DNA of 64,000 nt from Candidatus Versatilivorator sp. Lineage in GTDB: Bacteria > Acidobacteriota > Terriglobia > Versatilivoradales > Versatilivoraceae. Positions 3,888 through 58,112 of the stretch are shown here, piece by piece (position 1 is the first letter of the stretch; the number at the start of each line of letters is the position of its first letter). Both the position numbers and the translations under genes were made by a program. The stretch covers positions 1,600,001 through 1,664,000 of the forward strand of contig OZ242296.1 of the NCBI GenBank assembly GCA_965207735.1. The letters run 5' to 3'. A model generated the notes under the pieces. The model ran no database searches. It saw only the letters and a program-made list of their open reading frames with translations, and was not told where the DNA came from.

Positions 3888-4074
3888 CTTGTCTGAAACA
3901 ACCGACAAACGACAAAAGAAAAAAGACTTATCCACGAAGGGGCACGAAGAACGACGAAGGGGCACTAAGGCGCTGAGGTTAACCGCGACGGGGTACCAAG
4001 GTCGCGAAGGGTTGATCGATTTCTGATTGTTTCACTCTATGTATGATCCGCACACCAGGGCGGGGGCGGGGCTT
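3888..4074 (+). repeat. dispersed ~180-bp intergenic element, copy A
   Basis: Near-identical to 53129-53300 (+) and 15493-15675 (-): ctgaaacaaccga...cttatccacgaaggggcacgaagaacgacgaagg...cactaaggcgctgaggtt...atcgattt...gtttcac...atgatccg. Confidence 0.9.
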
Positions 4075-48050: not shown

Positions 48051-49139
48051 TCAAGGCCGAATGCCGACCCGAAGGGCGCCACTGGCCACGGCGTGCTGAA
48101 AGGCCCGGCTGACCTGGGTGAGCGGAAACATCCGGGTGAGAAGCTCGGAGAAGGGGAACCGGGTGTGGTGTTGCTCGAGGAAGGCCATCGCCGCCGAGAG
48201 ATCTTGCGGGGCGTAGTTGTGAACACCCCGAATCTGCAGCCAGCCGCGCACCACCCGTTCCGGGTCCAGGGAAAGAGGAGCGCTGGGAAACACGGCTCCG
48301 ACCAGGACGTAGCGCCCTCCGGTCCGCAGTAAGGGCACGGCCGCCGCCATGGCGCTGGCAGCCCCCGACAGTTCCAGGGCCAGGTCCACCCCGCGTCCCC
48401 GGCTGAGCTCCTTCACCGTTCGGGCCAGGATCCCGGGTCCCTCTCCAACTGCTACGCAATGGCTGGCGCCGAAGCGTTCGGCCTGCTTGAGTCTGGCTTC
48501 GTCGACGTCGCAGACAATGATCCGGCTGGCGCCTTGCGATCGAGCCAGGGCGCAGGCCGTCAGGCCCAACATGCCGGCCCCCTGGATGAGCACGATCTCA
48601 CCGCCACAGCCTCCGCCGGCCCGCATGGCGGCCATGACCGTGGCCGTGGCGCAGTTGGCCGGGCAAGCCACCTCGTCGGGCAGACCCTCCGGAATCGAAA
48701 CCACCGCGGTACCGGCAATCAAATGGCACACCTCCGCCAGCCCCCCGTTGAAGAGGTGTTCAGGCTGAAGGCTCTCGTGTCCATACTTGAAAAGCCGTTC
48801 GCACTTCTGTGGAAGGGAATGCCGGCAGAAGAAACACTGCCCGCAACTGGCCGCAATCGACCAGGAGATGCGATCGCCCACTGTGACCGGCTTGCCGTCC
48901 AGGGTTCGCACCGGCGGCCCCGGGCCCACTTCGATGACCTCACCCAGAATTTCGTGGCCCAGGATGGTGGGCGTGGGGGTCTGGCGGCGGCCCTGATAGG
49001 TGTGGAGGTCGCTGCCGCAGATCGAGCTGCAACGCACCCGCGCCAGCAATTGCGAAGACCCGGGCCGAGGCAATGGGAAACTCTCCAGCCGGATGGGCTC
49101 TCCCGGTCCCGCAAACACGGCCGCGCGCGCCGTTTCCAT
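48051..49139 (-). CDS. zinc-dependent alcohol dehydrogenase, phosphonate-catabolism associated
   Basis: ICGSDLH, GHE, CGQCFFC...C structural Zn site, NCATAT, GAGMLG; last gene of the phnA-phnY operon. Confidence 0.88.
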   Translation of the reverse strand: METARAAVFAGPGEPIRLESFPLPRPGSSQLLARVRCSSICGSDLHTYQGRRQTPTPTILGHEILGEVIEVGPGPPVRTLDGKPVTVGDRISWSIAASCGQCFFCRHSLPQKCERLFKYGHESLQPEHLFNGGLAEVCHLIAGTAVVSIPEGLPDEVACPANCATATVMAAMRAGGGCGGEIVLIQGAGMLGLTACALARSQGASRIIVCDVDEARLKQAERFGASHCVAVGEGPGILARTVKELSRGRGVDLALELSGAASAMAAAVPLLRTGGRYVLVGAVFPSAPLSLDPERVVRGWLQIRGVHNYAPQDLSAAMAFLEQHHTRFPFSELLTRMFPLTQVSRAFQHAVASGALRVGIRP

Positions 49140-49155
49140 CTTCGACTCCCCGCAA

Positions 49156-50598
49156 TTACCAGGGCAGCGAGAAGGTCTTGACCGTGGACATGAACCTCAT
49201 GGCCTCGATGACCCCTTCCTTGATCCCCAGCCCCGAATCCTTGACGCCGCCGAAGGGGGTGGACTCGATACGGTAGCCCGGCACCTGGTTGACGTTGACC
49301 GTCCCGGTGCGGATTCCCTTGACGGCCCGAATGGCCGCCTGGATATCCCGGGTGACCACTCCGGCGGAAAGCCCGTAAGCGGTGGCGTTGGCCAAGTCGA
49401 TCCCGTCCTCCAGATCGCGGATGGCCAGAATGGGCGCCAGCGGCCCGAAGGACTCCTTGACCACCATCTTGCAGGTTCTGGGCACGTCGGCCACCACCGT
49501 GGGTTCCATGAGAGCTCCCTTGCGGCGCCCGCCGCGGAGGACCCTGGCGCCGGCCTCCACCGCTTCCTCCACCCGCTGCTGAAGTCCGGTCGCCGCCGCC
49601 TCGTCGATCACGGTGCCGACACGGGTGGTCCACTGCTCGGGGTCGCCCGAGATGTACTCGCCGGTTTTCTCCACAAACAGCCGGGTGAAAGGCTCCAGCA
49701 CCCTGTCGTGAACCAGCAGCCGCTTGACGGCAGTACAGCGTTGCCCGGAATTGCGATAGCACCCTTCGGCCGCCAGGCCGGCGGCCAGTTCGAGATCGGC
49801 GTCTTCCAGAATCAACAGGGGCGAGTTGCCTCCCAGCTCCAGGCACAGCTTCTTGTAGCCGGCGATGGCAGCCAGGCGACGGCCGACTGCTCCACTCCCG
49901 GTAAAGGTCACGGCCTCGATGCGGTCATGCATAGCCAGGGGCTCGGCAAATTCCCCGACGGAACCCAGCAGCACACTCAGCATCGGCCCGGGAAGCCCGG
50001 CCTGGTAAAGCAATTCCGCGAATCGGATGGCGGCCAGCGGCGTCTTCTCCGACGGCTTCAGAATCAGGGGCGCCCCGGCGGCCACGGCGGGAGCGATCTT
50101 GTGCACCACCTGGTTCAGGGGATGATTGAAAGGCGCGATGGCCCCCACCAGGGGAACCGGCTCCCGCAGGGTGAAGATCTTCCGGGCCTTGCCGTGAGCA
50201 GAGACATCTCCCGAAAATACCTGGCCCTCGTCCTTGAGTGCCTCGACGGCGGCGCATTGCAGCACGTCCAGGGCCCGACCGACCTCGTAGGTGGTATCTC
50301 GCAGACACAGACCGGACTCTCGTGTCACCAGCAGGGCGAACTCCTCGGCTCGCTGCTGCAGGAGGGAACGGGCCTTCAACAGGACTTCATGCCGCTGGTA
50401 GCGGGTCAGCGAGCCTTTCCAGGCCAGCGCCTCCTCGCAAGCCCGGTCGAGGTGATCGCGCCCCGCCAGGGAGACCGTCCCCACCAGTGCTCCCGAAAAG
50501 GGATTGAAGACCTCCAGGGTGCTGTCGGTCCGGAGCGGCTGCCCTGCCAGATAGCCGGGAAGATCCAGCGTTTCCTCGCGGGACCGGCTGAGCTTCAT
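49156..50598 (-). CDS. phnY: phosphonoacetaldehyde dehydrogenase
   Basis: ALDH motifs PFNHPLNQVVHK, KPSEKTP, FTGS, ELGG, GQRCTA, ESFGP, GIKDSG-like GVKDSG; ATGA-coupled to phnA. Confidence 0.9.
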   Translation of the reverse strand: MKLSRSREETLDLPGYLAGQPLRTDSTLEVFNPFSGALVGTVSLAGRDHLDRACEEALAWKGSLTRYQRHEVLLKARSLLQQRAEEFALLVTRESGLCLRDTTYEVGRALDVLQCAAVEALKDEGQVFSGDVSAHGKARKIFTLREPVPLVGAIAPFNHPLNQVVHKIAPAVAAGAPLILKPSEKTPLAAIRFAELLYQAGLPGPMLSVLLGSVGEFAEPLAMHDRIEAVTFTGSGAVGRRLAAIAGYKKLCLELGGNSPLLILEDADLELAAGLAAEGCYRNSGQRCTAVKRLLVHDRVLEPFTRLFVEKTGEYISGDPEQWTTRVGTVIDEAAATGLQQRVEEAVEAGARVLRGGRRKGALMEPTVVADVPRTCKMVVKESFGPLAPILAIRDLEDGIDLANATAYGLSAGVVTRDIQAAIRAVKGIRTGTVNVNQVPGYRIESTPFGGVKDSGLGIKEGVIEAMRFMSTVKTFSLPW

Positions 50599-51839
50599 CG
50601 GGAACCTCCCTCGCAAAGACAGGCAAACAGGTCGAAATTTCTCGGGTCTTTGGCTCCCTCCGCGCGTGTACACGGTTCGGAAAGCAGCAGGGGCACCGTT
50701 TCCTCGAAGCGGCCGCCGTGGGACCTCAAGCCGCCCCTCAGGGGGCGCAGGTCGTGATACTCGGGCGTGCGGCCCATGACGACGTCCCGGTCCGAAAATA
50801 CCATCAGGTCTCCAATGCGGTCCGGTGGGAGCTCCAGCCGGGTGACCGCATCCGGGCGCCTGCACACCTCGGTCACACCCTGGCGTCGAGACAGCCATTG
50901 GACCACGCTCGCCTCGGACAATCCTTCAGCCAGGTGAACCGTCACCGCCGACCCCAAGGCTCCGTGGTGCACCACGTAGGGGTCGGTGATCGGACAGATC
51001 ACCGTCACGCCCCCGCCAAAACGCTCGCGCAGCTCGCTCTCCAGGTAGATCACGTTGGGCCGGCCGTCGGGCCTGGTCTTGTCATTCATTCCGTGATCGG
51101 CCGTGGCACCGAGGGTGGCGCCCAACTCCAGCAGCCGGCCCAACTGATGGTCGATGGCTTCATAGAAGTCCAGCGCCTGGGGAGCTGACGGTGGATAGCG
51201 GTGCTGCACGTAGTCGGTCAGCGACAGATACAGAAAGTCCGAACGGCCGCTCTCCAGCAGGGCCACGCCCGCCCGCAAGACGAACAGGCTGGCCTCGGCG
51301 CTGTAGATGTCGGGGCTACCCTCCCGGACCGACTCGGCCAGGCCTTCCAGGCCCGGAAGGCCCCGGATCTGATCGGCGGCCCGCTCCGACGAAAAGGCGA
51401 TACCCGAAAGTCCACGGGTCAACAAATCCCGCAGCTTCTCCTTGGCCGTCACCATGGCCACCTTCCTCCCCGATCGGGCGGCGGCTGCCAGGATGGTGTC
51501 GCACCGCAGGTAGCGGCCCGAGTTCATCATGACCTCCGCGCCGCTCCCCGGGTCGAGAAAGAAGTTGCCGGAAATGCCGGTGGCGGAAGGCGGAACACCG
51601 GTGACAATGCAGGCGTTGTTGACGTTGGTGTAGGTGGGAAGTGCGGCCCGCGCCAGCCCGCGGTAGCCGCCGGCAGCCATTCGGGCCAGGTGGGGCATGC
51701 GGTCCCGGGCGAGCGCCACCGTCAGGTAGTCGTCCTCGCAGCCATCCATGCAGATCGCTACCACCGGCTTGGCCGGCGGCCGGTATCGGCGGCCGTTGAC
51801 GGAGAAGGGCGAGGTGGAAATCGTTGGTTTCATGGTCAT
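50595..51839 (-). CDS. phnA: phosphonoacetate hydrolase
   Basis: VNGRRY, CMDGC, PTYTNVNN, GISGN, VTAKEKLR, LTDYVQH, TADHGM, PITDPYVVHHGALGS, LRSHGG. Confidence 0.93.
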   Translation of the reverse strand: MTMKPTISTSPFSVNGRRYRPPAKPVVAICMDGCEDDYLTVALARDRMPHLARMAAGGYRGLARAALPTYTNVNNACIVTGVPPSATGISGNFFLDPGSGAEVMMNSGRYLRCDTILAAAARSGRKVAMVTAKEKLRDLLTRGLSGIAFSSERAADQIRGLPGLEGLAESVREGSPDIYSAEASLFVLRAGVALLESGRSDFLYLSLTDYVQHRYPPSAPQALDFYEAIDHQLGRLLELGATLGATADHGMNDKTRPDGRPNVIYLESELRERFGGGVTVICPITDPYVVHHGALGSAVTVHLAEGLSEASVVQWLSRRQGVTEVCRRPDAVTRLELPPDRIGDLMVFSDRDVVMGRTPEYHDLRPLRGGLRSHGGRFEETVPLLLSEPCTRAEGAKDPRNFDLFACLCEGGSR

Positions 51840-51851
51840 GAAAATCGCTGG

Positions 51852-53114
51852 CTACCGCCGGACAAACAGTGCAATCGAACCGCTGAGCAAACAGGCGCCC
51901 GCCACCACCGGAAATACCAGGCCGGTGTTATCGCCGCTCCGTTGGATCATCCAGCCGATGAAGGGCTCTCCCAGTCCCGCCAGAAGGTAGGCATGCATGT
52001 TCATCACTCCCGTGCCCGTGCCGGCGTAGCGGGTCCCCAAGAGATCCGGACACAGCGCCCAGAAAGCTGACTGGGGACCGTAGGTGAAGAACCCGCAAAG
52101 GGCCAGCAACGCCAGGGACCAGAAGAAATGGTACGGCAACAGGTACATGGCGGTACAGGCCAGAAAGGCGGCCGTCATGAACAGGAAGATGACCCTGGAC
52201 CGATTGGAATGAAAGACCCTATCGGACAGCCAGCCGCTGCAGACCGCTCCCAGGGCCATGCCCACCGGCAGCGCCAGTGTGATCCAGGACCGCGCTGAAA
52301 AACCTCGCCACCCCTTTCCCAGGAAGTGGACCGGCACCCAGGTCAGCAGGCCGTAGCGGGCCAGGCTCTGGAAACCGATGGCCAGGCTGGCGATCATGAA
52401 GCGCCAATTGGAACATACCTGACGATAGCGGTGCCAGGCGGTCTCCCCGTTCTCTTGCCGGCTTGAGGGCGCGGCCCGGTCTTCAGCCGGGTCGGCTTCC
52501 AGGTGGTTGGAGCCGGTGAAACCGAGTTCCGAGGGACGGTCCCGAGCCATCCGGTAGTAGACCGCCCCCCCCAGCAGAAGCAGCAGTACCGGGAGGCGAA
52601 AGATCCAACGCCAATTCAACTCCAGAGCCAAAATGAGATTGGAGGTGGTGAAGGCCAGAACGGAGGACAGGCCGGCCGCGCCCACGTAGAGACCATAGAC
52701 CTTCCCGCGCTCCAGGCGGCCCCACCAATTGGACAGCACCCGGCTTCCCGGAGCCCAGCCCATGGACTGCGCGTAGCCGTTGATGGCCCATGGGACCATC
52801 AGACCCGCCAAGCTGCCGGCGAAGCTCACCCCCCAATTGAACAGGCAGGAAAGCAGCGCCCCCAGGCTGATCATGCGGCGGCCGCCGAACCGATCACCCA
52901 GGTTGCCGTTGACGGCCTGCCCGGCGGCATAGCACCACAACATGGCGCTGCTGACCCACCCCAGGCTGGCCTTGCCGATGCCCAACTCCTGCTCGATGCC
53001 CGGAATGGCGAAGCCGAAGGTCTGTCGGCCGGTGTAGTAGAAAAAGTAGCAGAGCATGGTGGCCCACAGAATGCGCCACTGAGCCCGCCGAAACCGACGG
53101 TCCTCACCTGCCAT
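51852..53114 (-). CDS. MFS transporter, organophosphate:Pi antiporter (GlpT/UhpT-like)
   Basis: YFFYYTGR, GNLGDRFGGR, NGYAQSMGW, WWGRLERG, GWLSDR, YGPQ; about 12 TM segments. Confidence 0.88.
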   Translation of the reverse strand: MAGEDRRFRRAQWRILWATMLCYFFYYTGRQTFGFAIPGIEQELGIGKASLGWVSSAMLWCYAAGQAVNGNLGDRFGGRRMISLGALLSCLFNWGVSFAGSLAGLMVPWAINGYAQSMGWAPGSRVLSNWWGRLERGKVYGLYVGAAGLSSVLAFTTSNLILALELNWRWIFRLPVLLLLLGGAVYYRMARDRPSELGFTGSNHLEADPAEDRAAPSSRQENGETAWHRYRQVCSNWRFMIASLAIGFQSLARYGLLTWVPVHFLGKGWRGFSARSWITLALPVGMALGAVCSGWLSDRVFHSNRSRVIFLFMTAAFLACTAMYLLPYHFFWSLALLALCGFFTYGPQSAFWALCPDLLGTRYAGTGTGVMNMHAYLLAGLGEPFIGWMIQRSGDNTGLVFPVVAGACLLSGSIALFVRR

Positions 53115-53128
53115 GTTTAGTTTCCTGG

Positions 53129-53300
53129 CGTGCCTGAAACAACCGAAAAAAGACAAAAGAAAAAGACTTATCCACGAAGGGGCACGAAGAACGACGAAGG
53201 GACACTAAGGCGCTGAGGTTAACCGCGACGCGGTACCAAGGTCGCGAAAGGATTGATCGATTTCCGATTGTTTCACCCTCGCATGATCCGCCCTCCAGGG
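53129..53300 (+). repeat. dispersed ~180-bp intergenic element, copy C
   Basis: Near-identical to 3888-4060. Confidence 0.9.
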
Positions 53301-53440
53301 CTCTTTTTCGGTCGGCCCTGACCGTCTCCCTCCAAAGCGGCGCAACGGAGCCGGAACCGGTGTGGTCCGGAGCAGAAACGTCTGGGAAATCGGCTGGACC
53401 GCTTGCTTTGAAAAGTCAGCAGTTTTGCTCGCCCTGGCAA

Positions 53441-54469
53441 TCATCCGCCCAGGCTGATCATCTCTATTTTCTTGTGATCCTCGGCGCGATATCCCTGCCG
53501 GGAATGGAGGGCCTCCAGCCGGGACTCCGAGTAACGGTCGCTCCTGCGATTCCAAATGGAGACCACCCGGCTGCGAAGCTCCCGATCAGAGGCTCCCGCG
53601 CGCATTGGCATCTTGAGGTCGTGTCCGACCTCCGAAAACAGGCAGGTAACAAAATTCCCGTCCGCGGTCAGCCTGGCTCGGCTGCATCCACCGCAAAAGG
53701 GTTCGGTGACCGAAGCAATCACACCGAAATCCCCGCCGCCGTCAGCAAACCGGTAGTCCACTGCCGGTGCCCTGCCCTGCTCGCGGCCCACTTCGGTCAT
53801 GGGGAAAACGGTACGGATGCGCTCCAGAATCTCTTCCTTGGAAACCATCTTCTCGGACTTCCAACTGTTGGAATTCCCGACGTCCATGTATTCGATGAAT
53901 CGAATACCGAACCCGTGGGAGCGAGAAAACTCCACCAGCGAGACGATCTCGTCGTCGTTGACGCCCCGTTCCAAAACCGTGTTGAGCTTGATCGGATGGA
54001 AGCCCTGGCTCCGGGCGGCAAGCAGTCCTTCCAACACTTTGGCCAGGTTGCCCCGCTTGACGATCCGCTTGAATTTTTCCGGATCCAGAGTATCCAGGCT
54101 GACGTTGATTCGTTTCAGTCCCGCCGCCTTGAGGAGGGAGGCTTGCTCGGCCAGCAGGGCCCCATTGGTGGTCAGGCACAGGTCCCGTAGACCCCCGAGA
54201 GAGGCCAGCCTCTCCACCAGCCGGTGCAGGTCCTTGCGCAGGAGAGGCTCGCCTCCGGTCAAGCGAATTCTCTCCACACCCAGCCCGACAAAAATGCGCG
54301 CGAGCCGTTCGATCTCCTCAAAGGTCAGGATCTCCTGCTTGGCGATCCAGACATATTCGTCAAAGGGCATGCAATAGGTGCAGCGAAAGTTGCACCGATC
54401 CGTCACCGAGATTCTCAGGTCCTTCAGGGGACGCTCAAAAGTATCGACCAGCATGAGGGAAACCACCAC
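53441..54469 (-). CDS. moaA: GTP 3',8-cyclase
   Basis: LRISVTDRCNFRCTYCM, TGGEPLLR, RFIEYM, FCGGCSRARLTADG...CLF, MISLGG. Confidence 0.97.
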   Translation of the reverse strand: MVVSLMLVDTFERPLKDLRISVTDRCNFRCTYCMPFDEYVWIAKQEILTFEEIERLARIFVGLGVERIRLTGGEPLLRKDLHRLVERLASLGGLRDLCLTTNGALLAEQASLLKAAGLKRINVSLDTLDPEKFKRIVKRGNLAKVLEGLLAARSQGFHPIKLNTVLERGVNDDEIVSLVEFSRSHGFGIRFIEYMDVGNSNSWKSEKMVSKEEILERIRTVFPMTEVGREQGRAPAVDYRFADGGGDFGVIASVTEPFCGGCSRARLTADGNFVTCLFSEVGHDLKMPMRAGASDRELRSRVVSIWNRRSDRYSESRLEALHSRQGYRAEDHKKIEMISLGG

Positions 54470-54495
54470 TGCCCAACAATCGGCAACTACCTATG

Positions 54496-54532
54496 AAAAA
54501 AGGCCATTCCTCCTCTCGGAAAAATGGCCTTC
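54496..54532 (-). terminator. Rho-independent terminator after erpA/iscA
   Basis: aaggccatt...aatggcctt stem followed by a T-run on the minus strand. Confidence 0.65.
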
Positions 54533-54580
54533 GAATCTCTGCGACTCGGATCCGCAATCAGACCCCGAATGGCTGCCGAG

Positions 54581-54904
54581 CTACACGTGGAAGGATTCGC
54601 CGCAACCGCAGGTGCTCTTGACGTTGGGGTTGTGGAACTTGAAGCCGGAGCCGGTGAGGCTTTCAATGAAGTCGATCTCGGTTCCGTCCAGATAGATCAT
54701 GCTCCCCTTGTCGACGAAGACCTTGAAGCCATTCAACTCAAGTATCTCATCCCCTCCGTTGGCTTGCTTCTCGAAGCCCATCTGATACTGAAAGCCCGAG
54801 CACCCGCCGCCCACGATCTGAACTCGCAGACCGGCGTACGCCTCCTGTTGGCTGTCCAGTATTTCCTTGACCTTACCCTGAGCTTTGTCGGTGATGTTAA
54901 GCAT
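54581..54904 (-). CDS. erpA: A-type Fe-S carrier (HesB/IscA/ErpA)
   Basis: GGGCSGFQY, GFKFHNPNVKSTCGCGESF. Confidence 0.92.
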   Translation of the reverse strand: MLNITDKAQGKVKEILDSQQEAYAGLRVQIVGGGCSGFQYQMGFEKQANGGDEILELNGFKVFVDKGSMIYLDGTEIDFIESLTGSGFKFHNPNVKSTCGCGESFHV

Positions 54905-54982
54905 TGCGTTTGCGGCTCCTTTCAGCCCCTCCAGCGATGACGACTGCTTGATAGAATTATTGTAGCCATTCCGGCAAAAAAA

Positions 54983-55966
54983 TCAATCCTCTGCATTGGA
55001 AGAAACTTCCGGCGCGCCTTCCTGAAGCACTCCGTTCCAAGGAGGAACCACGATCGAAACGTCCCCGTAGCACTTGGATTGGCAGGCCAATCGAACCACC
55101 GGATGCTTCCGGGCGGTTTCTGCCGGGGGAGCGTAGCCGAAATACTGCAGACGGCGCTTTTCGAATGGGGTCATTTCAGAAAGGTTTTCCTGTCCGGAAA
55201 GCACCCCGATCCAGCAGTAGCCGCACGCGCCGCTGCGGCACTGCACCGGTACGGGTCCGGCAATGCGCCTCTGATCCAACTCCCGAAAATCCCTCGGATC
55301 GTTCCCGCTGGCCATCGACAGGTCCTGCCCTTCCAAGGCCTCAAAGCAGGACTCCGGCGTGTTCTCGTCAAAGGTCACCCGGTATCTCTTTGATTTCCAG
55401 ATCAGGGACTTCCAGCTCCGGCCCCCCCGCCTTCGCAACTTCAACACCTCGGCCACCGATTTCGGGCGCCCGTTGGGGACCAGGTCGGCAGCACCCTTGG
55501 CCAACGAGGACAAGCCCACTTGCCGCAGCACCATCATCCCCACCGCAACGATGCCGGTCAGCAGAGACGGCTCCACCCGGAGCCTGGCGGCCAGCCGGCC
55601 GGACAACTCCAGCACGTGGGCATCCAGGCCGGTTTCTTGGGGTTCCGAGATCTCCTCGGCGTAGGCCATCACCGCCCGCTTGACTTCCGGCCAATAGCTC
55701 GACCCGAACAGAAAGGCCACCGAGGCATCGATCTGCTCCTCCAGACGCGGCGTGCCGTCCAACTGAAAGTCCTTGAATACCTGGGCCGGATCGGGGGATC
55801 GGTCCAGAGCCAGCCGAAGCTTCAAGGGCCAGAAGGCAAACCAGATACGAGTAGCCTGGCTGTCAACCGGATGGATTTGGGAAAGAATTCGAGTCACGGA
55901 CTCGGCCCACGCGCTCTCTTCCAACTGACTCAAATAGCTTTCGAAAACCGTCTTGCCGGCAGCCAT
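54983..55966 (-). CDS. protein with unknown N-terminal domain and C-terminal [2Fe-2S] ferredoxin domain
   Basis: CRSGACGYC...RLACQ plant-type 2Fe-2S motif; about 190-aa helical N-terminus not recognised. Confidence 0.8.
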   Translation of the reverse strand: MAAGKTVFESYLSQLEESAWAESVTRILSQIHPVDSQATRIWFAFWPLKLRLALDRSPDPAQVFKDFQLDGTPRLEEQIDASVAFLFGSSYWPEVKRAVMAYAEEISEPQETGLDAHVLELSGRLAARLRVEPSLLTGIVAVGMMVLRQVGLSSLAKGAADLVPNGRPKSVAEVLKLRRRGGRSWKSLIWKSKRYRVTFDENTPESCFEALEGQDLSMASGNDPRDFRELDQRRIAGPVPVQCRSGACGYCWIGVLSGQENLSEMTPFEKRRLQYFGYAPPAETARKHPVVRLACQSKCYGDVSIVVPPWNGVLQEGAPEVSSNAED

Positions 55967-55997
55967 GATCCCGTTATTCCGCCTTTCCCGCCCAACC

Positions 55998-56030
55998 AAA
56001 AAATGGGCTATCCGTCACGGATAGCCCATT
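55998..56030 (-). terminator. Rho-independent terminator after the radical SAM gene
   Basis: aatgggctatccg / cggatagcccatt perfect stem followed by a T-run on the minus strand. Confidence 0.85.
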
Positions 56031-56066
56031 GAAACCCTCTCCTGGCCCCAATCCTCGCAACCACCG

Positions 56067-58112
56067 TTACTTGGAGGGAGCTGAGATCTGGACCAGTTCG
56101 TCCGGTTTCTTGTTGAGGACCATTTCCTCGTAGACCTCACGCATCTTGGCCGCCTCCCGGGCCGCCTTCCTGCGCATCCGCGCCTCGTCGGCCGCCGTCT
56201 GCGGGCCATCGCTCAGCGATCTCACTCTGGCTGCATCCTCGGCATCCACCCTGAGAAAGTGATCGTAGCTCTCCAGGCCGACCTTCTTGCCCTTGGCGAA
56301 CACCTCGTGCTTCCCGTGGTTCCTGTACCATTCGGCCACGGTGGCATTCTTGTGCATGTTCTCGATGATCTTCCGCCATCCCACCCCGGTGTTGTAAGCA
56401 CAGAAGGAGATCTCTCCCTCCTGGGTGGCGTAGGGAATGATGCACATCTCGGTCCGCCGGAAGTCGTAGTTGAAGAGATCCTGGAACCACATTCCCGAGA
56501 TAAAGAGGAAATTCCAGGGATCCGAGCGGCGCTTCTTGATGTCCTCAATGGTTCGGCTGGGGTCCGACTTGCCATATTTAAGGTCGGCGTCGCCGGAGGT
56601 ATTCCAGGTCTTGTCGAACTTCTTGAGGATATCGGACAGAACCAGACTCGGCGGCGCCTTGAAGGGGGAGTAGTTCTTCAGCAGCGCCATCGCCATCATG
56701 AAGTTGGAGAAGCTCTTGCCTCGAGCCGCGTCGGTAATCATGCGCATGTCCCCCATCAACCCGGGGACGTCGATGAACTGGGGAACCGCGGCCACCTCCT
56801 TGTTCTCCTTGTTGATCATTAAGGCCGTGCCCACGCCGCAATTGGGGTGGCAGCCGCAACTGAACGTGCCCCATTCCCGGTCGGGGCCGTGCACCAGATC
56901 CGCGTAGTCGGCAAAGCCCCCCATGATCGAAATCGGAAACCAGTCCCGGGTCGGTTCAGCGATCCCGGTCTGAGTCTTCACGTCGCTGGCCATGTGAGAC
57001 AGCGTGTAGCGCTGGCGGTGGCGGCGATCGGGGGTGATCTCCTCATCCCGGCCGGTGAAGGAGACCGGCTGGAAGGCGATGAAGGCGATCTTCTTGGGGT
57101 TGTCGATAGCAAACCGGATGATGGGGCCAACCTGGTCGTTGTTGACTTCGTTGATCAGGGTGGTCACCAGAACGATCTCAATGCCGGCTTCGTGCATGTT
57201 GTTGATCGCTCTCAGCTTGACGTCGAAGAGATTGCCGATCTGGCGGTGGCTGTTGGCGTCGTTGCCGATCCCGTCGAACTGCAGGTAGGCGTAGCGCAGT
57301 CCGGCCTCGGCGGCCTTGCGCGAAAACTCCTTGCTCTTGGCGAACTCAATGCCGTTGGTCGCCGCCTGCACACTGTTGTATCCCAGGTCGCGCGCCAACT
57401 TGACCGCCTTTAGGAAATAGGGCGACATGGTCGGCTCTCCGCCGGAAAACTGAATGGACATCTGTCTCCTGGGCTTGATTTCCAGGGCGTTGGTCATGAT
57501 CTCCTGGATGTCTTCCCAACTGAGCTCATGAACATAGCCCACCTGGTTGGCATCCATGAAACAGGGATCGCACATCATGTTGCAGCGGTTGGTAAGGTCC
57601 ACGGTCAGGACCGATCCCCTGCCGTATTTGATGGTGCTGGTGCCGTGCTTGTGCAACCGCTCGTCGTTGTGAGCCCGGATGTCCCGGCCGGGAAAGTTGC
57701 TCTCGATCCAGTTCAGAAACTCCACGTCCTTGGCCATCATGTCCTCGAACTTGCCATGCTGCGGACACTCCTTGTCCATCCACACCTCGCCGTTCCGCTC
57801 GACGATCTGCGCCTTGATTTCACCCACGTGTTCGGTCACCAGCGATTGCCAGTCCTGCTCTCCGTTGATGATCCTCTCTCTGGCCTCCATCACGCAGACG
57901 GGGCAAAGGGAGTCAGTGGTTCTGGGGAACCCCAGGGTGGGTTTGGACTTTTCCCAAGACTTCTGCAGGGGCTTGTCCGACCATTTGGGCGTAAAGGACG
58001 GATTGGGGAAATGCTTGTTGAAGAGCTGGATGGTGTTGAACACAACGCCGGCCGCCGAACATGCGGCGGAGTCCACGTATTTCATGAGGCGTTTGCCTGT
58101 TGCGCTAGACAT
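56067..58112 (-). CDS. radical SAM protein of the tetraether synthase (Tes/GDGT-MAS, MJ0619) family
   Basis: N-terminal SLCPVC...KECPQHG, DLTNRCNMMCDPCF, QFSGGEPT, TNGI, YLQFDG, FQPVSFTGR, CHPNCG, FQDLFNYD...C...SFCAYN. Confidence 0.82.
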   Translation of the reverse strand: MSSATGKRLMKYVDSAACSAAGVVFNTIQLFNKHFPNPSFTPKWSDKPLQKSWEKSKPTLGFPRTTDSLCPVCVMEARERIINGEQDWQSLVTEHVGEIKAQIVERNGEVWMDKECPQHGKFEDMMAKDVEFLNWIESNFPGRDIRAHNDERLHKHGTSTIKYGRGSVLTVDLTNRCNMMCDPCFMDANQVGYVHELSWEDIQEIMTNALEIKPRRQMSIQFSGGEPTMSPYFLKAVKLARDLGYNSVQAATNGIEFAKSKEFSRKAAEAGLRYAYLQFDGIGNDANSHRQIGNLFDVKLRAINNMHEAGIEIVLVTTLINEVNNDQVGPIIRFAIDNPKKIAFIAFQPVSFTGRDEEITPDRRHRQRYTLSHMASDVKTQTGIAEPTRDWFPISIMGGFADYADLVHGPDREWGTFSCGCHPNCGVGTALMINKENKEVAAVPQFIDVPGLMGDMRMITDAARGKSFSNFMMAMALLKNYSPFKAPPSLVLSDILKKFDKTWNTSGDADLKYGKSDPSRTIEDIKKRRSDPWNFLFISGMWFQDLFNYDFRRTEMCIIPYATQEGEISFCAYNTGVGWRKIIENMHKNATVAEWYRNHGKHEVFAKGKKVGLESYDHFLRVDAEDAARVRSLSDGPQTAADEARMRRKAAREAAKMREVYEEMVLNKKPDELVQISAPSK

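Follow-up and report, generated by a model that had tools for sequence, protein, structure and literature searches.

The window analysed here is a stretch of 64,000 nucleotides from Candidatus Versatilivorator sp., whose genome is complete in one 5.26-Mb contig. Its minus strand carries a gene (P0001, a name also used for its product) that starts with ATG and has no internal stop, and is hence intact (Table 1). GGAG lies 12 bases upstream of the start, and the GC3 is 0.83. The open reading frame and every motif quoted in the first-pass annotation are present: CPVC (residues 70–73), CPQH (116–119), CNMMCDPC (177–184), YLQFDG (276), FQP (347), CGCHPNCG (419–426), GMWFQD (540–545), C557, Y561 and FCAYN (570–574). 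Pfam recognizes a Radical_SAM domain and an HMPTM zinc ribbon (PF23545) in the protein, and its sole strong PDB match is GDGT-MAS (7TOL, E = 1.2e-63), the Tes protein of Methanocaldococcus jannaschii.

Table 1. Features of the P0001 locus, in window positions.
Feature	Position	Strand	Remarks
Tes-like radical SAM enzyme gene P0001, His-rich clade without N-cluster	56067..58112	-	681 aa
N-terminal extension, aa 1–61	57930..58112	-	long helix 2–34 in model
Rubredoxin-like site C70, C73, C116, H119	57756..57905	-	PF23545; = MJ0619 C9/C12/C33/H36
His-rich loop, aa 146–157, replacing N-terminal [4Fe-4S] motif C73/C77/C80	57642..57677	-	alignment
Radical SAM CxxxCxxC: C177, C181, C184	57561..57584	-
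CGCHPNCG; C425 = first conserved Cys of C-terminal cluster domain	56835..56858	-	alignment
C-terminal cluster region: M541 (= labile Met439), C557, Y561 (= Tyr459), C571	56391..56495	-
C-terminal extension, aa 604–681: charged helix 640–664, low-confidence tail	56070..56303	-	model
Downstream gene: helical N-domain + [2Fe-2S] ferredoxin-like C-domain	54983..55966	-
ErpA/IscA-type Fe-S carrier gene	54581..54904	-	TIGR00049 above cut-off

The terminal extensions, first estimated at about 60 and 100 residues, measure about 61 and 75–80 residues by structural alignment (model residues 62–603 on chain residues 1–499). They had been taken as particular to this copy; the best 120 homologues cover 88–100% of the query, and homologues among the best matches are labelled Terriglobia or Acidobacteriota. 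The N-terminal extension is moderately amphipathic (hydrophobic moment 0.3–0.5), and a 19-residue hydropathy window, with a maximum of 1.2, finds no transmembrane segment in residues 1–61; contact of its helix with the membrane is possible. In the rubredoxin-like site, an insertion of about 20 residues separates the two ligand pairs.

No conserved lipid gene was found beside the P0001-type gene in 80 loci with 7-kb flanks or in 35 further loci. An FmdB-type zinc-ribbon gene recurs as a neighbour in 34 loci, and ErpA/NfuA-like genes do so in 10 loci apart from that of the window. The ferredoxin-domain protein encoded downstream has invariant cysteines C243, C248, C251 and C295 and gave a pLDDT of 37 in a single-sequence fold; its gene seems broken in two genomes (G015 and G018). 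It occurs in 22 of 24 other genomes of the host family and in 1 of 16 other Terriglobia. In the family loci examined it adjoins the Tes-like gene; at locus L199, from a genome of another lineage, the distance is about 3 kb. Within the host family, its product is a possible electron donor to the P0001-type enzyme, as predicted from domain and position, and it is not a fixed partner of the wider clade.

RNA-library contigs from four studies cover the P0001 gene, one of them spanning 53431–56484. We rejected them as support for expression, because they come from relatives mostly 85–95% identical and show neither level nor co-transcription. The RNA runs that contain part of the gene include sponge metagenomes, and sponge data also hold close relatives of the host, which falls in a Terriglobia lineage; such matches loosely indicate habitat. 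P0001 has no plasmid match, and its ESM Atlas matches are Acidobacteriota clusters only. Elsewhere in the window, a minus-strand phosphonate-use cluster (48051–53156) comprises a PhnA phosphonoacetate hydrolase above cut-off, a phosphonoacetaldehyde dehydrogenase-like gene (599 of 636 bits), an MFS transporter and a Zn-dehydrogenase-like ORF. An interspersed repeat of about 60–80 bases, strongly purine-rich on one strand, occurs at 53169–53198 and near 3933, 5407 and 15632. A 30-base probe of it matches the genome exactly at 60 places and nearly, with no more than 4 mismatches, at 231; the repeat attracts very deep short contigs in RNA libraries.

GDGT-MAS (MJ0619; 7TOL, 7TOM; NF045702) contains four metal centres, namely a Cys3His rubredoxin iron, an N-terminal cluster whose ligands are a His and C73/C77/C80, the radical SAM cluster, and a C-terminal cluster in which Met439 is labile (accessible text of PMC9433317 and PMC13459092). 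Catalysis is assigned to the radical SAM and C-terminal clusters, and the accessible part of the same study gives no role to the N-cluster or the rubredoxin site (PMC9433317, Lloyd 2022). P0001 keeps three of the four sites: rubredoxin, radical SAM and the C-terminal cluster ligands C425, C557, C571 and M541, together with Y561, where Met439 and Tyr459 are numbered as in PMC9433317 and the cysteines were assigned by alignment. The C-cluster residues are common to canonical Tes and kept in 118–120 of the best 120 homologues. The N-cluster Cys triad occurs in none of these 120 proteins and HxHG in all of them, and the His-rich clade that they typify has two extra conserved cysteines beside C425. 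The motif match to MJ0619/Tes that had been claimed thus stands for the Cys3His site, the radical SAM motif and the C-cluster ligands; it does not extend to the N-terminal cluster cysteines, where a His-rich loop is found instead.

An AlphaFold2 model built from 73 sequences reached a pLDDT of 91. It aligns 481 of 498 residues with 7TOM (Z 45.1, rmsd 2.5 Å, 33% identity; next fold Z 21.1), and Foldseek returns GDGT-MAS at E = 1.5e-37. The likeness covers the whole fold, with the radical SAM CxxxCxxC in a partial TIM barrel. GDGT-MAS has two hydrophobic lipid pockets leading to the 5'-dA site; the modelled C-domain of P0001 superposes on its lipid-binding C-domain, and in the alignment 56 of 63 C-domain columns hydrophobic in canonical Tes stay hydrophobic in the His-rich clade. 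GDGT-MAS binds ester phospholipids of Escherichia coli, according to the accessible text of PMC9433317. P0001 differs from it in the absent N-terminal [4Fe-4S] cysteines, both extensions, the rubredoxin-loop insertion and its bacterial host. As judged from sequence and model, P0001 is a Tes-fold radical SAM enzyme predicted to lack the N-terminal iron-sulfur cluster.

The best NCBIfam family for P0001 is Tes (NF045702), with 326.9 bits against a cut-off of 450 that three archaeal control genomes pass; a paralogue elsewhere in the genome scores 286.4 bits. Trees were made with FastTree (66 sequences) and with UFBoot (41 of these, after the longest branches and redundant rows were dropped), both unrooted and with no experimentally validated Tes inside. 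They split the His-rich proteins and the intermediate sequence P0129 from all proteins with the N-cluster motif or a passing HMM score, on a branch of about 0.5 with support of 1.0 (FastTree) and 100 (UFBoot); without P0129, monophyly of the His-rich set is weaker (0.95 and 60). Because P0001 scores below the cut-off, has no N-cluster ligands and groups separately from all sampled Tes proteins that pass the HMM, we consider on these sequence criteria that it is not a Tes orthologue. The gene is real and intact, and its product belongs to a large, uncharacterised branch that is sister to Tes. The HMM search and phylogeny put forward as a check in the first-pass annotation therefore spoke against its Tes/GDGT-MAS assignment, of which there remains that Tes is the only full-length sequence and structure match.

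Three known systems bear comparison. Canonical bacterial Tes homologues (S. usitatus Acid_5929 type, about 40% identical to MA_1486) share superfamily and phylum with P0001, and both have been proposed for membrane-spanning lipids. The canonical type, however, keeps the N-cluster motif, passes NF045702 (568 bits for L188, 594 for L189), is 32–39% identical to P0001, has a patchy distribution and was not found in the host genome. Reference L186, taken on the wrong strand, was left out of this scoring. Mss (Thermoanaerobacter ethanolicus WP_129545148, Thermotoga maritima Tmari_0825) performs, by proven radical SAM chemistry, the tail-to-tail joining of bacterial acyl chains that we propose for P0001. 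It is described in the accessible literature as a protein of 446 aa from anaerobes, remotely related to Tes and not reported in Acidobacteria, a comparison by description. With 681 aa and a Tes fold, P0001 is unlikely to be an Mss member. The idea that a DUF512 protein is Mss was dropped, as the T. maritima control has no PF04459 match. NCBIfam also identified no lipid-synthase family among 13 further radical SAM-type proteins encoded in the genome, namely the DUF512 protein and 12 of the 27 PF04055 matches.

The third system, TrsS (NF045646), resembles P0001 in its rubredoxin and radical SAM N-terminal half, and scores 228.5 bits against a cut-off of 490, with the best stretch ending at residue 383. 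As TrsS has no known lipid role, this score lends something to the idea that P0001 serves a non-lipid housekeeping function in Terriglobia, Blastocatellia and Vicinamibacterales, its match to lipid data reflecting shared ancestry and oxygen lifestyle. Independent gains and losses of the gene are few, its neighbours are unrelated or Fe-S genes, and homologues occur in bacteria not known to make such chains (accessible text of Lloyd 2022, PMC9433317). We regard this as improbable, given a Tes score above the TrsS score, the retained hydrophobic columns and a superposition that takes in the lipid-binding C-domain.

The distribution of the clade was sampled in 160 genomes of the phylum, with a ribosomal-protein tree of 75 genomes and families labelled from named S3 clusters, and then class by class. 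Type was assigned by identity band (34–38% matches for the canonical type), with a motif, HMM or tree check on a subset. Among Terriglobia relatives (n = 40), the orthologue is present in 38, the paralogue alone in one, and neither in one. The His-rich clade occurs in 59 of 61 Acidobacteriaceae (counting fragments at contig ends and the unpublished genome G344) and 40 of 41 Blastocatellia; the canonical type is present in 10 and 3 of these, respectively. Vicinamibacteria carry it in 21 of 51 genomes, with no canonical type: 21 of 22 in ten families that include the Luteitalea family, and 0 of 29 in the other four (one 33% match). In Thermoanaerobaculia, the counts are 14 and 3 of 61 (the unpublished G061 included). 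Neither type was found in 41 Holophagae; the same query gave matches in every search outside that class. In a Gemmatimonadota-centred sample, the clade occurs in 1 of 51 genomes, the centre genome itself, with 35–38% matches in 11 more; a broad role outside Acidobacteriota is not supported in that sample. All tallies are descriptive, as the genomes are kin and the contrast is one clearly negative class against three positive ones, confounded with oxygen lifestyle.

These counts can be set beside published lipid data. Iso-diabolic acid makes up 20–40% of the fatty acids in cultures of subdivisions (SD) 1 and 3, and the accessible text of PMC13159169 assigns no enzyme to it in the phylum. In Table S21 of that paper, in its accessible form, iso-diabolic acid is recorded for 14 of the 15 SD1/3/4/6 strains, S. 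usitatus being the exception, and for none of four strains of SD8/10/23 (Holophaga, Geothrix, Thermotomaculum and Thermoanaerobaculum); Mss is recorded for no acidobacterial strain. The His-rich clade tracks the producers, being near-universal in producing groups and not found in Holophagae, and is therefore likely to contain the missing iso-diabolic acid enzyme. Canonical Tes cannot explain the producer pattern, because it is present in only 10/61, 3/41 and 0/51 genomes of these groups. It follows that canonical bacterial Tes, or an unrecognised Mss-like enzyme, is quite unlikely to couple the tails while P0001 acts as an accessory, low-activity or condition-specific paralogue, all the more as the host genome also lacks canonical Tes and no Mss is reported in any acidobacterial producer. 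That arrangement draws some support from S. usitatus and Ca. Koribacter, the best-studied tetraether and tetraester producers, which have a canonical homologue of 40–42% identity (as far as the accessible literature goes). In five Acidobacteriaceae genomes (G171, G365, G366, G376, G382; loci L186, L224, L225, L226, L227), canonical Tes and the His-rich gene also share a contig and lie at most about 13 kb apart; no further conserved lipid gene separates them.

According to its accessible text, PMC13159169 applied a 30% identity filter, which left Tes matches in only 3 of 14 producers, and concluded that another pathway is used. We compared 36 His-rich proteins with four distant HMM-passing Tes, queries other than those of PMC13159169, and found identities of 26–33%, such that a 30% filter passes 1, 2, 5 or 27 of the 36, depending on the query. 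A filter straddled in this way by the His-rich clade offers an explanation, at the level of sequence identity, for the patchy published count.

We propose that P0001 is an iso-C15 tail-to-tail synthase giving membrane-spanning lipids of iso-diabolic acid, with a probability of roughly 55%. Its substrates would be two iso-C15 chains carried by membrane phospholipids, and linking them at their terminal methyl carbons would give iso-diabolic-acid (C30) lipids. By analogy with GDGT-MAS, SAM would be cleaved at the C177/C181/C184 cluster (Lloyd 2022), the 5'-deoxyadenosyl radical would abstract hydrogen from a chain terminus, and the chain would be parked through a C-S bond on the C-terminal cluster of C425/C557/C571 and M541. 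A second SAM would then produce a second radical that displaces the parked chain and closes the C-C bond. An iso-acyl tail has at its end the gem-dimethyl group also found on a phytanyl tail. Phytanyl lipids are not expected in a bacterial host such as this one. There is a fair probability that P0001 works like Tes, and the lead to a lipid substrate and C-C coupling is fair because Tes/GDGT-MAS is the sole full-length match and the catalytic parts are kept.

The first reading of the sequence had suggested that branched GDGTs (brGDGTs) or other C-C-linked lipids may be made. The latter part holds as a fair lead on the Tes fold and retained catalytic parts; for the former, the distribution fits iso-diabolic acid, in ester- or monoether-bound form, better than brGDGTs specifically, because in clade-bearing groups most cultures produce iso-diabolic acid and few produce brGDGTs. 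A lipid substrate is favoured by the fold and the hydrophobic C-domain, which do not single out any product, and the same radical and cluster chemistry on membrane lipids might instead yield a sulfur-bearing lipid, a cross-link, or a macrocycle or ring closed within one molecule. Both macrocycles and a C-S intermediate are known from GDGT-MAS (accessible text of PMC9433317). The clade has lost one cluster, gained about 140 residues and kept its two extra cysteines, and the retention of two 53% paralogues in the host family and Pyrinomonadaceae suggests split tasks. Such a product seems to us a minority prospect, since no other lipid of this distribution was found described in the literature searched, whereas iso-diabolic acid is abundant in SD1/3 cultures and has no assigned enzyme.

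Several observations count against P0001 as the iso-diabolic acid synthase. The protein is below the Tes cut-off and one cofactor is gone. Few independent contrasts underlie the match between clade and lipid, in essence that of Holophagae with three related classes, and any gene of the same ancestry would give it. Fourteen Thermoanaerobaculia carry the clade, yet iso-diabolic acid is not made by the only cultured member in Table S21, which may come from another family than the carriers. In Vicinamibacteria, 29 genomes lack the clade. S. usitatus contains, besides the canonical type, a homologue of >30% identity that is probably of this clade, and has no detectable iso-diabolic acid, though it makes brGDGTs of the same skeleton (accessible text of PMC10087280). 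In addition, the paralogue could carry the activity instead of P0001. This second His-rich gene (G000 C1:664327-666168; L001:10271-12250) is 52–53% identical to P0001, lies in a region with several transposase-like ORFs and is present across the host family and in Pyrinomonadaceae.

The host genome contains candidate genes for the surrounding pathway. Two FabH genes above cut-off and three E1 dehydrogenase genes are candidates for iso-branched chain supply. The Ger/PlsA domains PF09989 and PF01869 were not found in the genome. The search for ether-bond genes that the first-pass annotation had suggested yielded an elb-like cluster at about C1:4896100-4907800 (L243), labelled by domain content and not by direct comparison. 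It comprises two reductase-domain genes (one with a HAD fusion), two AMP-binding genes, and enoyl-CoA hydratase, diacylglycerol kinase and acyltransferase genes. Ether bonds in the host would come from this cluster and not from Ger, so that esters and monoethers of iso-diabolic acid are predicted as products; brGDGTs are possible and not required. A polysaccharide pyruvyl-transferase-domain gene also lies in the cluster, and a myo-inositol-1-phosphate synthase gene 3 kb away. At C1:2112006-2125329 (L244), a polyketide-synthase-like ORF of 2405 aa precedes two radical SAM genes of the B12-binding DUF4070 kind and a gene fusing reductase and sulfotransferase. Positions C1:3285841 and C1:4773221 hold two further radical SAM genes of B12 type; the B12-type genes are candidates for lipid chain methylation. 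A preprint (10.64898/2026.06.23.733905), in its accessible part, reports C30–C31 diacid glycerol monoethers in every sponge species studied and tes with elbD or ger in sponge Acidobacteriota MAGs, stating that bacterial tes function is not validated.

Bacterial Tes homologues as makers of such lipids are already in print. The accessible parts of these papers propose bacterial Tes homologues for brGDGTs, with a 32% match in E. aggregans (Zeng 2022, PMC8941075); describe two S. usitatus homologues, of 40% and >30% (Halamka 2023, PMC10087280), the 40% homologue having led to that strain (Chen 2022 preprint); and tie Tes to iso-diabolic tetraesters in Ca. Koribacter (Chen 2025, as cited in PMC13023045 and PMC13274423). 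Judging from their identity range and from the clade-only genomes of the Luteitalea family and most Acidobacteriaceae, the E. aggregans protein, S. usitatus Acid_2410 (>30%, 92% coverage), A. capsulatum WP_015897912 and Luteitalea WP_237050610 probably belong to the His-rich clade. Such low-identity proteins are treated in the accessible texts as weak Tes matches, not as a near-universal subfamily without a cluster. In the literature searched, which leaves most subscription journals outside, we found no assay of any bacterial Tes homologue and no description of a Tes subfamily without the N-cluster; nor was any literature on Acid_2410 or Versatilivorator found by name. New here are a test of presence and absence class by class, the explanation from the identity cut-off, and the genome context.

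Iso-diabolic acid is the skeleton of brGDGTs, which serve as palaeotemperature and pH proxies. At even odds, we suggest that a three-cofactor branch of the Tes fold, neither canonical Tes nor Mss, is the iso-diabolic acid synthase of aerobic Acidobacteria and the entry to most acidobacterial brGDGT-type lipids, overlooked through the 30% filter, and that sponge symbionts such as the host lineage pair it with an elb-like cluster to make the membrane-spanning C30–C31 monoethers seen in sponges. If true, Csp3-Csp3 tail coupling would be possible without the N-terminal cluster. The gene, which is strongly conserved, occurs in single copy and follows the producers, is a concrete target for expression and deletion, and, should the proposal hold, would be a marker for the source organisms of these proxies.
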